From: Eledone cirrhosa
Lineage: Eukaryota
Assembly (NCBI GenBank): GCA_964016885.1
Contig: OZ024743.1
Span: forward strand, 361,150,001-361,214,000
Length of the DNA stretch: 64,000 nt
Reading direction: 5' to 3'
The notes under the pieces are model-generated. The model did not search any database. It was not told where the DNA came from and worked only from the letters and a program-made list of their open reading frames with translations. A program made the position numbers and the translations under genes. Positions 1,573-11,170 of the stretch are shown here, piece by piece. Positions within the stretch are counted from its first letter, which is position 1. Every line of letters begins with the position of its first letter.

Positions 1573-2195
1573 AAGGTATATATTGAGTTAGGAACTCAAA
1601 ATAGTCTCTTACAATAAAATAGCTCTAAGAAAGAGATATTTCCGAGCCGTATATTATAATTGAATATAAAAGAAAAACGAACATAGATATATACATATAT
1701 GTGTTCAAATCGCAAGGGACCAGATTCGCTAAGGTGACAAGAATACTAACTATAGACAATAGGGTTTGCCTGTCTCAATTTAAGAAGAAATCAAGAAAAT
1801 AAATACAAACCGGAATTGTGGTAACTACCAATCACCCAGACAGCTTGGTGCTGTTTCGCAACACTAAGTAATTGTGAATAGAAATACCAAATCTTGCTCA
1901 TCAGTGGGTGACAAATTAGTATCCTAGACACTTCTAAGTATATTAAGGAACTGAATAGTGTGCTATATATAATAACGCACATGTTATATTAGCGTGTCTC
2001 ACAAACTTACACCAGTAAAAATAGCAGCCAGGTTTATTCGACATTTTATTCGACGTGTTTTTTCTTAAATTGAGACAGGCAAACCTTATTGTCTATAGTT
2101 AGTATTCTTTTCACCTTAGCGAATCTGGTCCCTTGCCAATTTGAACACATATATGTATATATCTGTGTTCGTTTTTCTTTTATATTCAATTATTA
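1571..2195 (-). mobile_element. Non-coding fold-back module (PLE pseudo-LTR-like) between (TA)n tracts
   Basis: About 1653-1790 is an inverted repeat of about 2060-2193 (e.g. gggaccagattcgctaaggtga / tcaccttagcgaatctggtccc). An HHR lies in the spacer and (TA)n flanks both sides. Confidence 0.75.
1832..1911 (-). ncRNA. Type I hammerhead ribozyme, canonical core
   Basis: Minus strand reads ucaccca CUGAUGA gcaa...uugc GAAA cagc accaa gcu GUC uggguga: 7-bp stem I, 4-bp base of stem II, 5-bp stem III, GUC cleavage triplet. Confidence 0.88.
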
Positions 2196-2196
2196 T

Positions 2197-2232
<36 letters not shown>

Positions 2233-2301
2233 TATGAAGAGAGAAGAAACATTTAGATATAATTAGTAATAAAATGTATCATACCTAAACTGTTCCTAAA
2301 T

Positions 2302-2389
2302 TCCTCGACTACGTAGTTTCGTGGCATAAACAAAAACAATATATCAAAGATATAGAGTCCTTGCGAGGTCTGCCGACTTATCAAGAGGA
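2302..2389 (-). ncRNA. Type I hammerhead, U3:A8 variant core (array copy 1)
   Basis: Reverse complement of the motif at 4180-4267. Confidence 0.8.
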
Positions 2390-2889
2390 TACCTCATTTT
2401 ACTAGTCTCAAGAACGCGTCTACACGACGTGAGAAAGAATCCCAAAAGGCGGAGGGGGAGATAGTCACGCGATATAACGGTCGAGAAACAGAGCTAAGCC
2501 TCTTATAACCACGAAGAAAATACCACGGAGGCGGAGGGGGTATTCATATCGAGGCCGCAGAAGAGGTAGTGAAGAAGGCGAGAAGTATGAGTAATGGAAG
2601 CTTTCCAGTTGTCCCCACACTTCAAAGATTGCTCGACCAGAGGGAGTTAATATATTTAGAATCACACAGATACATGCGGACACACACATATATACATGAA
2701 TGCATCCGCACCCAACTGTGAGTTAAGGGTGCCAACTTCACCGATGTTGCTCAATGAATGACTGGGACAGACCAATTCAGTTTGAACCGGACTGAACCAG
2801 TATCAGAGTTAAAAATACATTATGAAGAGAGAAGAAACATTTAGATATAATTAGTAATAAAATGTATCATACCTAAACTGTTCCTAAAT

Positions 2890-2977
2890 TCCTCGACTAC
2901 GTAGTTTCGTGGCATAAACAAAAACAATATATCAAAGATATAGAGTCCTTGCGAGGTCTGCCGACTTATCAAGAGGA
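2890..2977 (-). ncRNA. Type I hammerhead, U3:A8 variant core (array copy 2)
   Basis: Identical to copy 1, offset by 588. Confidence 0.8.
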
Positions 2978-3477
2978 TACCTCATTTTACTAGTCTCAAG
3001 AACGCGTCTACACGACGTGAGAAAGAATCCCAAAAGGCGGAGGGGGAGATAGTCACGCGATATAACGGTCGAGAAACAGAGCTAAGCCTCTTATAACCAC
3101 GAAGAAAATACCACGGAGGCGGAGGGGGTATTCATATCGAGGCCGCAGAAGAGGTAGTGAAGAAGGCGAGAAGTATGAGTAATGGAAGCTTTCCAGTTGT
3201 CCCCACACTTCAAAGATTGCTCGACCAGAGGGAGTTAATATATTTAGAATCACACAGATACATGCGGACACACACATATATACATGAATGCATCCGCACC
3301 CAACTGTGAGTTAAGGGTGCCAACTTCACCGATGTTGCTCAATGAATGACTGGGACAGACCAATTCAGTTTGAACCGGACTGAACCAGTATCAGAGTTAA
3401 AAATACATTATGAAGAGAGAAGAAACATTTAGATATAATTAGTAATAAAATGTATCATACCTAAACTGTTCCTAAAT

Positions 3478-3565
3478 TCCTCGACTACGTAGTTTCGTGG
3501 CATAAACAAAAACAATATATCAAAGATATAGAGTCCTTGCGAGGTCTGCCGACTTATCAAGAGGA
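3478..3565 (-). ncRNA. Type I hammerhead, U3:A8 variant core (array copy 3)
   Basis: Identical to copy 1, offset by 1176. Confidence 0.8.
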
Positions 3566-4179
3566 TACCTCATTTTACTAGTCTCAAGAACGCGTCTAGA
3601 TAAGTCGGCAGACCTCGCAAGGACTCTATATCTTTGATATATTGTTTTTGTTTATGCCACGAAACTACGTAGTCGAGGAATTTAGGAACAGTTTAGGTAT
3701 GATACATTTTATTACTAATTATATCTAAATGTTTCTTCTCTCTTCATAATGTATCTTTAACTCTGATACTGGTTCAGTCCGGTTCAAACTGAATTGGTCT
3801 GTCCCAGTAATTCATTGAGCAACATCGGCGAAGTTGGCACCCTTAACTCACAGTTGGGTGCGGATGCATTCATGTATATATGTGTGTGTCCGCATGTATC
3901 TGTGTGATTCTAAATATATTAACTCCCTCTGGTCGAGCAATCTTTGAAGTGTGGGGACAACTGGAAAGCTTCCATTACTCATACTTCTCGCCTTCTTCAC
4001 TACCTCTTCTGCGGCCTCGATATGAATACCCCCTCCGCCTCCGTGGTATTTTCTTCGTGGTTATAAGAGGCTTAGCTCTGTTTCTCGACCGTTATATCGC
4101 GTGACTATCTCCCCCTCCGCCTTTTGGGATTCTTTCTCACGTCGTGTAGACGCGTTCTTGAGACTAGTAAAATGAGGTA

Positions 4180-4267
4180 TCCTCTTGATAAGTCGGCAGA
4201 CCTCGCAAGGACTCTATATCCTTGATATATTGTTTTTGTTTATGCCACGAAACTACGTAGTCGAGGA
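4180..4267 (+). ncRNA. Type I hammerhead, U3:A8 variant core with branched stem II
   Basis: uccuc UUGAUAA gucggca...ugccac GAAA cuacgua GUC gagga. Stem I is uccuc/gagga and stem III is the palindrome acuacguagu. Confidence 0.82.
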
Positions 4268-4501
4268 ATTTAGGAACAGTTTAGGTATGATACATTTTAT
4301 TACTAATTATATCTAAATGTTTCTTCTCTCTTCATAATGTATTTTTAACTCTGATACTGGTTCAGTCCGGTTCAAACTGAATTGGTCTGTCCCAGTCATT
4401 CATTGAGCAACATCGGTGAAGTTGGCACCCTTAACTCACAGTTGGGTGCGGATGCATTCATGTATATATGTGTGTGTCCGCATGTATCTGTGTGATTCTA
4501 A

Positions 4502-4543
<42 letters not shown>

Positions 4544-4946: not shown

Positions 4947-5154
4947 ACAGAGTGTATTATAGTGAAAACATAACAAGGACGATTGGTTACTCCTTCATTA
5001 CATTTATTGGTTGGTGACGCGTGTTTCGCCACTGATCAGCTCAAGGTTCTATCTGTATCGATCTGTATCGATCTTACACAGATTAAGCTTGACTACAAAG
5101 GGGGTGGACATCATACTAGTACCTAGGTAAGCTTTACAAGAATTTGACGGTAAA

Positions 5155-6045
5155 TTGTGGGAACGACAGAATAGACCAGATAGCTTCGACATTACTATGG
5201 GGTCGACCGACTCCGTGCAGGTTACCGATATAGTAGGCCTATACCTCCTAAATATATTAACAGATGAGATTAGGAGCATAATTAACTTAATAGTTAAAAG
5301 CGTTTCCTCTAGAGTGTCCACCCTCTCGGCAAATAGAACTATCTTCAACCAGCACGCGGAATACTATAACTCCGCACTTGAAAAGGCTGGTTACATTGAG
5401 AAGATATTTTACAATGACCCAACTATAACTGCAACGCCGCTAAACCTAATCAGTCCCTTACAAACGAACATAGACGAGGACACCACACCTAGAACAAATA
5501 ATAACCTAAGACCCTATTTAGCCGACAGGACAGGAAGCGTTACTCACAACTGCCAAAGAGATAAAGCTATACCGTCCAACCCCAATAAGGACTCTGAATA
5601 TCGCACGCGTTTCCATAGTGATAGACACCCGAGATATAACGCCAATAGAATACTAGGAACCCCTATGTCAAATATGCCTGACCAAAACGCACCCAAGCAA
5701 CCACCTAACCACAAAAACGACACTAAACACCGTAAAGCCCGAAGTAGACCTGTGACATGGTACAACGCCCCGTATTCTATACACGTTACCACCAATATAC
5801 CGGCAACCTTCTTCAGGGCTCTTGGAGAATCCTTCCCACACAAACATAAATACCACAAGCTCTTGAATAGATACACCGTAAAATTCTCTTTCTCCACAGC
5901 ACCAAATCAAGGCCACACAATATCACACACTAATAGGACAAAAATACGCAAACACATTATAGCCCCACATCAAACCACTACCACAACCCAGAACGAAACC
6001 ACACGCACAACACAACACAACAACCCACATGCCAGATCCACATAG
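5155..6045 (+). pseudogene. PLE reverse transcriptase remnant (catalytic YxDD region deleted)
   Basis: RT motif B-like MGS..S..V.DIVGLYLL joins directly to the thumb; compare the intact YRDDG region at 47729-47980. Confidence 0.8.
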
Positions 6046-6094
6046 CATTTGAATAACCAACAACGTGCCACCAAACCTGTAACTCCCAACTGAA

Positions 6095-6510
6095 ACTGCA
6101 AAAAGCTGGTAGAATGCCCACTAAACGGGGAGTGCCTCGTTAAAAACATTATTTACCGGTGCAATGTCACAGCTGGCAATAAAGAGTAATCCTATATATG
6201 TGAGACCTCCACTACGTTTAAGGAGCCCTGGTATAGCCACAGAAGCTCATTTAAACACAGGCTCAAACGATCCCATACTAGACTAGCCGATTTTATCTGG
6301 GATCTCAAGGACAAGAACATCGAATTCCAGATCATATGGTCAGTCAAAAGATGCGTGGCCCAACTTCCCAGTGACAGAAACCACTGCAGGTTATGCTTGG
6401 CCGAGGTGGCTGAGATAATTAAATTGAAATCTGCTATAACCTCTAGGTCTGACATAATTATAAATTGTAGACACACCAAGTTGAAAACCCTCTCTGCACA
6501 AATATTCGTT
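6095..6510 (+). pseudogene. PLE GIY-YIG endonuclease remnant
   Basis: CPLNGECLVKNIIYRCNVTAG..*SYICETSTTFKE...CRLCLAE...NCRH, with one in-frame stop. Confidence 0.8.
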
Positions 6511-6569
6511 TGAGGCCCGCACACTAACCATGACTCAACATAATGATAACCACCTTTGCCTTGCCACAC

Positions 6570-7345
6570 CGTCCCTCATCTCAGTGCATTTGTTATATAT
6601 ATCATGTAACCCTTTGTAAGTTCAGATTTTGTAAATATCATACCGCATCCATCACCCCCACCAACAGACACATCGCCATACATCCCTCATCTCAGTAACA
6701 TTGTGTTATATCTGTCCTCTCTATTAGGTTTTACCATGTAAACCATAGTAACATACGGTCCTGTAAATATAATGTCGAACGTATCACCCCATCGCCACCA
6801 ACACCACCACCATACACATCGCTATACGTCCACCATTCCTCATTCATAACCTTGTTTCCCCGTGTTCCCTCTATCATTTTTTAATCTGCAATCCTCCGTA
6901 AAATTCGATCCTGTAAATATTCTGACGCACACACCATCATCCCCCCTCCCCCACCAGATACATCTCCATACTTCAACACTCATTAAACATCATTAACATC
7001 ACCAACACATATCATCCCTCCCTCTCAGAACCATTGCGTTATATCTGTCCCCTGTGTCAGGTTTTACATTGTAAACCAGCGTAACATCCGATCATTGTAA
7101 ATATAATGTCAAACATATCACTCCATCGCCACCACCACTACCACCATACACATTGCTATACGTCCACCATCCCTCATTCACAACCTTGTTTCCCCGTGTT
7201 CTCTATGTCACTTTTTAACCTGTAATCCATCGTAAAATTCGATCCTGTATATATTTTGTCGCACACAACACCACCACAAGGCACATCTCCATACTTCAAC
7301 AATCATTAACATCATTAACATCAGCAACACATATCATCCCTCCCT
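6570..7345 (+). repeat. Degenerate tandem array in the PLE 3' region (about 330-bp duplication built from shorter related subunits)
   Basis: 6681-7020 is repeated at about 7013-7344. Subunits share ccctcat...tgtaaata...acatc.ccatac. Confidence 0.8.
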
Positions 7346-7839
7346 AAAGAACGCAAGGGTGTGTGTCTGTGTGTACATTTGTGTACACATACGTATATTT
7401 ATATGTACAACGCCATCTCCACTGGCTCCTCTCTCTCTCTCTATACATATATATATACACATGTGTATGTATACTACGTTTTTGTCAGACTAAAGTGTGT
7501 CTATGTATGTATCTCCTTATTGAATTTGACTCCACCAACACTTCCATCACACCACCATAAACACCATTACCACAAGCAACAAAACCACACCTAGACCACA
7601 CACAATAATCAGCCACAAATATATGCCAACAATCTACCGACAATACACAAACCCCACACCACCGCCCACTTCAGCCTGCGACCTTCACCACTATCTCATC
7701 ATCACATCCAACTTCACATGCTCTACAGGCAAAAAATCCCTATGAACTATCCCACCAATCAAAACAAACTTTATTGACTAACATATGAACTTCTGACTTT
7801 ATCATATAGCATGTATTCATTTTCTACGAGCATTTCAAG

Positions 7840-7926
7840 TGGTCCGTCGAGCCGCAGATTACTGAGTCGGGTAATATCGATACAGATCGAACCTTCAGCT
7901 GCTTAGTGGCGAAACGCGCGTCACCA
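7840..7926 (+). ncRNA. Hammerhead-like motif in PLE pLTR, variant core CCGUCGA
   Basis: uggu CCGUCGA gccgc...guggc GAAA cgcgc GUC acca. Confidence 0.6.
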
Positions 7927-7974
7927 ACCAATAAATGTAATGAAGGAGTAACCAATCGTCCTTGTTATCTTTTC

Positions 7975-8019
<45 letters not shown>

Positions 8020-9994: not shown

Positions 9995-10375
9995 TTATAT
10001 ACTACGTTTAAAGTTTTGGAAAGAATGTCGGAAGCGGTGTTGGCATGACGCAAACACTTCCGACTTTTTATTAAGGAGGTTAAGATTCGAAAATATTATA
10101 GTATGGGTCTCTAGTAGACATAGGTTACAGAATTTATTAGGTGGTTTATACGATGCAGCCCTACCTACTACTTCCCATTGAAGTGTACATGATTTATTCC
10201 TAGTTTTCAGATAGTGTATGTAGCTAGATAGTGAAGTGGAGTTGGCTAGATTGTGGTTTTTGAAAGAATGGAGAAGTGAGTTGTATCTCGTTTTGAAGCA
10301 GTTCGACGTAGAGCCTATATATGTTTCGGAAAAGTTGCTAGTTCTGACCGTGCATGAGTAAATGATTGCCAGATT
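9995..10375 (-). pseudogene. PLE GIY-YIG endonuclease fragment (open frame missed by the ORF track)
   Basis: Manual translation: AIIYSCTVRTSNFSETYIGSTSNCFKTRYNSLLHSFKN...STSLSSYIHYLK...WEVVGRAASYKPPNKFCNLCLLE...LLNKKSEVFASCQHR...*. Confidence 0.88.
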
Positions 10376-10379
10376 TGGC

Positions 10380-11170
10380 TGTATGGGAAAGTAGATGAAA
10401 GGACTATAAAAGCCAAAAATGAAAGGAAAAGAAGGGTAAGGAAGGTCGTTGGGACCACAGAGAAGGAGGGGAGAGGATAATGAGATCTAGGCCTAGCGCG
10501 TGGCACTATTGGGGCTGCGTCCCAGGGACAAAGCTACTAAGGTATTTCCTCAGATATTGTCCAGCAACAGCCGCTGCATCTGCCACCTCACCTCGCAGGA
10601 TCCTTCCTTAGGCGGCCTGCTAAAGTTCTGATGTTTTGAAGGAGCTTGGGAGTAGAGTATCCGAGTACGCCTGAGGCCTCGACAGCGACATGTGCGAAGA
10701 GGAAATTGCTAGAAAATCACCGGTGTTTGTTTATCTTCCGTTCCTCTGCATTGCGGGATGCAGTAAAGGGATTTGTGGCCGATGCGACTAAGTTGGCGGC
10801 AGAGAAAGTATTACAACAATTGGCGTCCCAGATGAAGGACCTACCTCCTTCGATTGGGAAGAGGTAATTCCATCGAGGCGCTTGCCGTTTCCGCGGTCGA
10901 GGCCTGCTGGCTCCAGTTGTGATGGGAAGCCAGCTGCATGCAGGCTGCTTCTCAATATGCCGTTGAAAGCGGCATGTCGAGGGAACAAGCCTGCGCTCTG
11001 GTAGCATGGCAGTAAGTGCAGGCCAACTTGTCTACGATAACCCTACAACGGCATTTATGTGGATCACACACGTGGAGGCCTAGGCTTTGGGCCATTCCGA
11101 TGTGAGTGCACTCGTCATCAAGAACGTTACGGTTTATGAAGTGGGCACCGATCTGCGTCATAAACTGCTT
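10380..11170 (-). mobile_element. 3' fragment of an RLE-bearing non-LTR retrotransposon (CRE-like)
   Basis: Frameshifted motifs CDPHKCRC, RHAAFNGIL, EPAGLDRGNGKRLDGIT, GRSFIWDANCCNTFSA, AEERK, VAVEASGVLG and QRL...GN. Confidence 0.8.

Follow-up and report, generated by a model that had tools for sequence, protein, structure and literature searches.

A high-copy 588-bp hammerhead retrozyme family of Eledone cirrhosa and a candidate Penelope-like route for its insertion

The 588-bp array and its hammerhead motif

The window analysed here is a stretch of 64,000 nt of the forward strand of the Eledone cirrhosa genome (assembly GCA_964016885.1, contig OZ024743.1, positions 361,150,001-361,214,000). 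An array with a period of exactly 588 bp was delimited in the window sequence; it consists of 2.33 units on the minus strand and 1.55 units on the plus strand, which lie head to head with (TA)n on either side (Table 1). Units were numbered on the ribozyme strand, taking the first base after the GUC as position 1 (window position 3675 = 1 and 4262 = 588). The two full units of the left arm were identical, and the full unit of the right arm had 4 differing positions. These coordinates and comparisons confirmed a preliminary description of this DNA, made from the sequence alone, which had reported about 2.3 nearly identical 588-bp units, an inversion and about 1.5 further units between (TA)n tracts. 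An assembly artefact was ruled out, since the same architecture was found at scores of separate loci.

Table 1. Coordinates of the array and its parts in the window
Feature	Position	Strand	Remarks
(TA)n target tract, left side	2200..2226	no strand	TRF 2200-2229 and sequence
Left arm, 1,372 bp, 2.33 units, unit positions 473 to 80	2227..3598	minus	outer 3' end (ribozyme sense) at fixed site A, position 80
Complete type I hammerhead motif, U3-A8 core	2302..2389	minus	predicted cut after 2307
Complete type I hammerhead motif	2890..2977	minus	predicted cut after 2895
Complete type I hammerhead motif	3478..3565	minus	predicted cut after 3483
Head-to-head junction of two 5'-truncated arms	3595..3599	no strand	3-nt overlap or blunt join
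Right arm, about 910 bp, 1.55 units, unit positions about 513 to 245	3595/3599-4507	plus	outer 3' end at fixed site B, position 245
Truncated hammerhead	3599..3679	plus	5' stem I strand and core start lost at junction
One full 588-bp unit (reference monomer)	3675..4262	plus	between successive GUC sites
Complete type I hammerhead motif	4180..4267	plus	predicted cut after 4262
165-bp "tail", start site A (80) to start site B (245)	4343..4507	plus	at this array end only; compare the PLE tail in PMC11167929 and PMC8557442
(TA)n target tract, right side, then (TG)n	4508..4521	no strand	sequence

The unit lacks credible coding capacity, as had been claimed: the longest stop-to-stop frame in a unit trimer was 85 aa, and no match was obtained when the frames of the unit were searched against Pfam. 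Its GC content is 42%, and the unit folded as a circle had a predicted energy of -173.5 kcal/mol vs -134.0 +/- 6.9 in 40 shuffles. The preliminary description had considered the unit longer than those of other animal retrozymes, which is not the case, because units of 51-972 bp have been published (10.64898/2026.07.22.740005); the GC content given for animal retrozymes is under 45% (PMC7229834). The identification as a retrozyme was thus upheld by the tandem units, the predicted hammerhead, the non-coding nature and a size and GC content within range. By its sequence, the element is a young, high-copy, non-coding tandem retrozyme with one predicted hammerhead motif per unit. A separate element with inverted arms (1707-1790 and 2058-2141, 94%) lies between TA tracts at window positions 1640-2190; it showed very deep cover in sequencing run X2 and is probably another high-copy repeat.

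Core letters and three helices served to identify the hammerhead motif. It comprises a stem I (UCCUC/GAGGA), the core UUGAUAA, the GAAA and the GUC ending at 4262, a stem II with a bulged C and an extra long hairpin within a 45-nt loop, and a stem III of 3 bp situated inside the palindrome ACUACGUAGU. The cut site previously placed at the GUC at 4262 agrees with this layout. Of the earlier claim of one type I hammerhead in every unit, the layout stood, but the core is the U3-A8 variant rather than CUGANGA, and four of the five motifs are complete, whereas the inversion junction interrupts the fifth, which ends at 3674. The U3-A8 core is known from Schistosoma PLEs (Penelope-like elements; PMC4209133) and is described as active in vitro (PMC3088659). 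The core letters were >99% invariant in about 270-290 copies, and a common variant was present at 1 of 47 core and stem positions vs 43 of 541 positions elsewhere in the unit, a difference that is suggestive only. Rfam detected no hammerhead in the array, neither at the gathering score nor at E values up to 10, and the local fold of the motif was no more stable than that of shuffled sequences (z -1.2). Covariation was analysed for 30 pairs in 34 hammerhead copies from two families; 92.9% were paired, but 452 of 500 shuffles were as well paired, so that no compensatory signal exceeded that of the shuffles. In vitro cleavage is reported for one of nine predicted Xenopus retrozymes (10.64898/2026.07.22.740005), and a PLE hammerhead is described as dispensable for insertion in vitro (PMC11167929).

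The family in the genome and its insertion ends

A 26-nt stretch of the hammerhead had 7,260 exact matches in the 3.0-Gb genome (control 0), part of which belong to an older sister family. The first 100 matches lay in about 50 loci, which gives an estimate of ~3,600 loci for the family. The older sister retrozyme family (L201-L230) is about 80% identical, with a unit of about 585 bp and the same U3-A8 core; its units are tandem, with two ends equivalent to sites 80 and 245, and 2,199 first-look candidates were counted. It was considered as a bridge to a parent PLE and proved to be likewise tandem and two-ended.

One hundred and forty-one regions were studied: the window, 50 regions from the head of the 26-nt match list, the 10 top matches, 68 regions chosen by a site-80 end and 12 chosen by a site-245 end. 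All of them are located on contig C1, except the ten top matches and the window, and picking a locus by one end leaves its other end free. Two duplicated loci were counted twice in the end tally and left out of later counts; whole-locus duplications were seen at L043 and L154. Eighty-nine of 199 arms were longer than one unit and 22 of 199 longer than two; arms reached 6.8 units, and one locus (L081) contained 11. Runs X1 and X6 each gave one closed-loop contig of unit length + 30; a collapsed DNA tandem would look alike, and these contigs were left out of the evidence.

Read in the ribozyme sense, the arms ended at unit position 80 (site A) or 245-247 (site B), and 208 of the 211 ends at these sites adjoined (TA)n. 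Among the inverted pairs of the 141 regions, 66 combined one end at 80 with one at 245, none had two ends at 80 or two at 245, and in 9 pairs one of the ends was irregular. Of the single arms, 39 stopped at 80, 24 at 245 and 3 elsewhere, so that 63 of 66 used one of the two sites; 2 regions of the tally were complex. The junction motif of site A had 2,604 exact genome matches vs 14 for its control, and that of site B had 997 on the forward strand (control 0), the reverse-strand count being too high because matches were listed twice. The 5' ends of the arms were instead spread round the unit, and the arm-arm joins mostly showed a 0-5 nt overlap. High copy number, (TA)n flanks and permuted endpoints had been proposed as things to look for in the genome; the copy number and the flanks were found as described above, whereas the outer ends proved to be fixed.

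The fixed outer ends and the one-of-each rule are the signature of a PLE "tail" with two start sites. A purified PLE protein, a dimer by prediction, both cleaves and elongates the two strands, and its start points are two RNA sites delimiting the tail (PMC11167929). The features of a PLE-type insertion were found in the family, namely 5' truncation, an inverted arm, a tail at one end and a microsatellite target. Mobilisation by PLE machinery, suggested in the preliminary description, is therefore supported by the two fixed ends, the tail and the inverted 5'-truncated arms.

Some details of the ends stand apart from this pattern. The offsets between the 5' ends of paired arms cluster somewhat at -130 to -176 (13 of 62). 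The arm junction at L074:5205-5462 contains short stuttered repeats of unit sequence, possibly reflecting repeated re-priming by the enzyme, and at L169:2720-3100 a short satellite with TA spacers lies beside an irregular arm end.

Penelope-like elements and mixed loci

Comparison of the unit with the terminal repeats of three autonomous PLE families, in a genome with 68,580 first-look PLE candidates, gave low-complexity similarity only. A short-loop hammerhead pattern with the same stem III, sought as the mark of a parent PLE, had 0 genome matches. Two candidate parents were discarded: a young PLE family encoding 830 aa, which had no match to the unit, and the PLE at window positions 4963-7975, which has a different hammerhead and no match to the unit either. 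The latter is a decayed element whose RT/endonuclease frames (5131-6510) are broken; its terminal arms, 100 bp long and inverted, contain a minimal hammerhead, and a repeat of 334 bp lies in its 3' region. An endonuclease fragment of the 830-aa family or a relative is present at window positions 9995-10486 on the minus strand.

One important question was whether the unit is just the pLTR of an autonomous PLE, an outcome that the preliminary description had named as contrary to its own reading. Of the single arms, 49 of 65 had a microsatellite on the 5' side, which indicates that the unit is more than such a pLTR. Of the other 16, whose 5' flank is not a microsatellite, twelve were inspected. 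A PLE frame match was present in 26 regions, and only that of L146 adjoined a retrozyme arm, in inverted orientation; no unit lying directly downstream of an RT-EN frame in the same sense was seen, and the pLTR interpretation was rejected. L119 shows a fusion of a site-80 arm with a Poseidon-like RT frame; both have the same orientation, and the join falls mid-frame.

At two loci, a retrozyme arm adjoins a PLE arm. At L146, a retrozyme arm ending at site A (80) is followed by 19 nt of the unit and then, head to head, by a 5'-truncated PLE arm ending at site B. This PLE arm is identical to an intact copy of its family, L236, at all 1,209 aligned bases, a single gap of 1 nt aside, and it uses the far end of the PLE, complementary to site 80 of the retrozyme. 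At L164, a retrozyme arm ending at site B (245) is joined to an arm of another PLE family at its near end (site A). A third candidate, L163, was rejected as a mixed insertion; both of its ends are distal, with unrelated DNA in between.

The one-of-each rule was also observed in inverted pairs of autonomous PLEs, in 4 of 4 pairs of the L236 family and in 6 of 6 and 4 of 4 pairs of two other families. The L236 family is young and has its own hammerhead, (TA)n targets and two ends about 70 nt apart. The 714-aa frame of L236 contains the RWK and DKT motifs, a CxCX5C linker and a C-terminal endonuclease region, read against the motifs given in PMC8557442. A Pfam scan of this protein was empty and a PDB search with it gave no match; among its Atlas neighbours, the share of members with GIY-YIG and RVT_1 ranges from a minority to a majority. 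By its motifs, hammerhead and (TA)n target, L236 is probably a Hydra-clade PLE. The Hydra-type PLE family of the regions L232-L260 and L261-L279 is very young; its 714-aa frames are intact, its 3' region spans 2 kb and is rich in TA/TG, and each unit carries two hammerhead-like motifs. In another PLE family (L331-L355), the hammerhead loop II is about 60 nt and the tail about 160 nt long, compared with a tail of 165 nt in the retrozyme, to which the family has no sequence similarity.

A Hydra-type PLE may thus be regarded as a candidate helper of the retrozyme, and more than one family may serve. It stays a candidate because the case consists of two mixed loci, with two different PLE families, for which agreement with the rule has a chance probability of one in four, and because later deletions between neighbouring elements could also have produced such loci.

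Template, mechanism and relation to known systems

The predicted cleavage site was crossed 285 times by the arms, and 284 of these crossings showed no indel. Thirty-two locus-unique variants were present in all the units covering their position (19 of them across both arms), 150 in a single unit and 6 in part of the units. The spectrum of shared changes was determined for 80 loci in which double cover sufficed, the polarity of each change being taken from the nearest other locus. On the ribozyme strand, the locus-wide shared derived changes (n=79) comprised 34 A>G and 10 T>C (P 2e-7 vs base composition), and A>G prevailed in 19 loci vs 7, whereas the changes private to one unit (n=202) leaned the opposite way, with 8 A>G and 31 T>C. 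With a cruder polarity, based on the majority base, the tally per locus was only 12 vs 10. A>G changes recurred at certain unit positions, for example 132, 158, 176 and 392. Neither the ADAR neighbour preference at the A>G sites (P 0.08) nor their pairing was significant. At L074, a haplotype with three A>G changes in 29 nt had 7 genome matches, all of them inside this locus, 4 and 3 on its two arms; uniqueness was checked for this one haplotype, whose parent locus could be missing from the assembly. The 4 private changes in the full right unit of the window were counted against a circular template.

Inosine is read as G by reverse transcriptases. Taken with this, the locus-wide A>G changes suggest that one edited RNA unit of ribozyme sense was copied repeatedly from both ends. 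On these sequences, the simplest reading is that the template of the shared A>G changes would be a circle, or a monomer copied with end-to-end jumps, and the L074 haplotype is best accounted for if a single RNA that had undergone A-to-I editing was copied by the rolling-circle route. The strand bias argues for a sense-strand template; antisense self-priming is favoured in the relevant part of PMC3846280. The preliminary description had likened the array to a rolling-circle reverse transcript, and the variants shared by all units of both arms lend support to that part of it.

That description had also attributed the inversion to a template switch. If one primed cDNA folded back on itself to form the inverted arm, as in the self-priming discussed in PMC3846280, one arm should be contained in the other, and this is impossible in 20 of the 62 two-armed loci; both DNA ends were therefore likely primed. 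The window's own arms, which start 36 nt apart, are compatible with fold-back, so the case for two primed ends rests on the family. Arm starts lay within 33 nt of the same unit position in 9 of 62 pairs, with roughly 7 expected, so that an excess is unclear. Fold-back cannot yield arms from two different RNAs, as at L146 and L164, and leaves the one-of-each rule unexplained. It is excluded as a general route, and as the origin of this family's arrays it is hardly credible. Another possibility is that short PLE-type insertions were later lengthened and homogenised as DNA, by unequal crossover and gene conversion. This is the model offered for vertebrate retrozymes (10.64898/2026.07.22.740005), and the whole-locus duplications are in its favour, but it does not predict a strand-specific A>G bias, it needs conversion across inverted arms, which more than half of the locus-unique shared variants span, and the arrays are very young; we regard it as very unlikely.

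The remaining alternatives concern the form of the RNA. The PLE could have primed at two ends on a linear, uncleaved multimer transcribed from a parent array, the hammerhead being slow or idle and a circle needless. Unprocessed RNA was the main PLE substrate in vitro (PMC11167929), the clean passage of the cleavage site fits such a template equally well and the hammerhead core is non-canonical. However, edits and errors should then differ between units, yet locus-specific changes occur in all units of both arms; moreover, a parent of the L074 haplotype is absent from the assembly, and arrays could never outgrow their parent without a further step, although L081 attained its 11 units. A linear multimer is thus improbable as the template. 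A cleaved linear monomer, on which the enzyme jumps from the 5' end to the 3' end and so mimics a circle, would account for the edits shared by all units, and end-to-end jumping is known from R2 enzymes. Arms starting exactly at position 1 (2 of 199, with 0.3 expected) and within 575-20 (18, with about 11.5 expected) are in line with it. Against this, such jumps usually add or lose bases, whereas all but one of the passes left the joint without an indel and stops there were rare; we give the monomer still less credence than the multimer.

Drawing on the observed architecture, fixed ends, one-of-each rule, locus-wide variants, A>G bias and mixed loci, we consider it probable that a PLE enzyme took a single RNA unit, likely a circle, as the template for priming at both ends of the cut DNA and made more than one turn of copying on it. 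In the proposed sequence of events, the ribozyme strand would be transcribed, the RNA would cleave itself at the GUC, perhaps after dimerising via the palindromic stem III, and the cleaved monomer would be ligated to a circle, which may occasionally be A-to-I edited. A two-site PLE enzyme, probably of the Hydra clade, would then bind at unit positions 80 and 245, strand-displacing reverse transcription would proceed from both ends of the cut (TA)n more than once round, and the two cDNA ends would be joined by 0-5 nt of microhomology. A more specific form is put forward as plausible but tentative: a two-site Hydra-type PLE would prime both ends of the TA repeat on the ribozyme-sense strand and roll round a single ADAR-edited circle, one active site being tied to the near start and its counterpart to the far start, also where the two arms derive from different RNAs, and the editing would be written into the germline and drive the evolution of the element.

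The element class itself is already known; the genomic evidence that the family offers on retrozyme and PLE insertion is unusually good. Circles as insertion templates, with target-primed copying by PLE enzymes, have been published as a hypothesis (PMC7229834, Cervera and de la Pena 2020), whereas a preprint by Li, Clavereau and Pollet (2026; 10.64898/2026.07.22.740005) proposes instead local amplification of the arrays. The origin of the inverted structures of PLEs and the template strand are called open in the relevant sections of the papers cited here. The retrozyme family gives countable evidence on all of these points, that is, circle templates vs local growth, the origin of the inversions and the template strand, and it names the ingredients for a reconstitution: an RNA of 588 nt, a pair of start sites, (TA)n as the target and a candidate enzyme that is intact. 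A literature search returned no paper joining Penelope elements, retrozymes and ADAR and, by title and opening of the abstract, nothing on two-ended rolling-circle insertion of a retrozyme.

The family resembles the animal non-LTR retrozymes in its head-to-tail, non-coding units with one predicted type I hammerhead each, a GC content of 42%, thousands of copies, a unit length within the known range and a strongly self-paired predicted circle. It differs from them in its U3-A8 core with a long loop II hairpin and in its insertions in (TA)n, which are strictly two-armed and have two fixed ends. Among three PLE families compared here, none had a terminal repeat matching the unit, whereas 24 of 57 Xenopus families are reported to match known elements (10.64898/2026.07.22.740005), and the available text of the retrozyme papers (PMC7229834, 10.64898/2026.07.22.740005) contains no analysis of insertion ends or editing signature. 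With the EN+ PLEs it shares the 5' truncation, the inverted 5'-truncated arm and the extension at one end (PMC8557442, PMC3846280, PMC11167929) and also, when PMC4209133 is added to these sources, two start sites of reverse transcription, AT-rich targets and a type I hammerhead with a palindromic stem III. Unlike those elements, the retrozyme has no ORF and forms arms of up to 6.8 units, and its tail is 165 nt long, vs 30-40 nt given for known PLEs and about 70 and about 160 nt in autonomous PLEs of the Eledone genome. The likeness to Hydra-clade PLEs (PMC8557442) is that of the candidate helper L236, separate from the retrozyme itself. In Chlamys elements of the MRC1 type, the 3' end resembles that of an autonomous partner, a resemblance not found for the retrozyme among three families, and hammerheads are mostly absent; like Chlamys MRC1 (PMC8557442), the family consists of non-coding, multicopy, head-to-tail insertions that would be moved by PLE enzymes.
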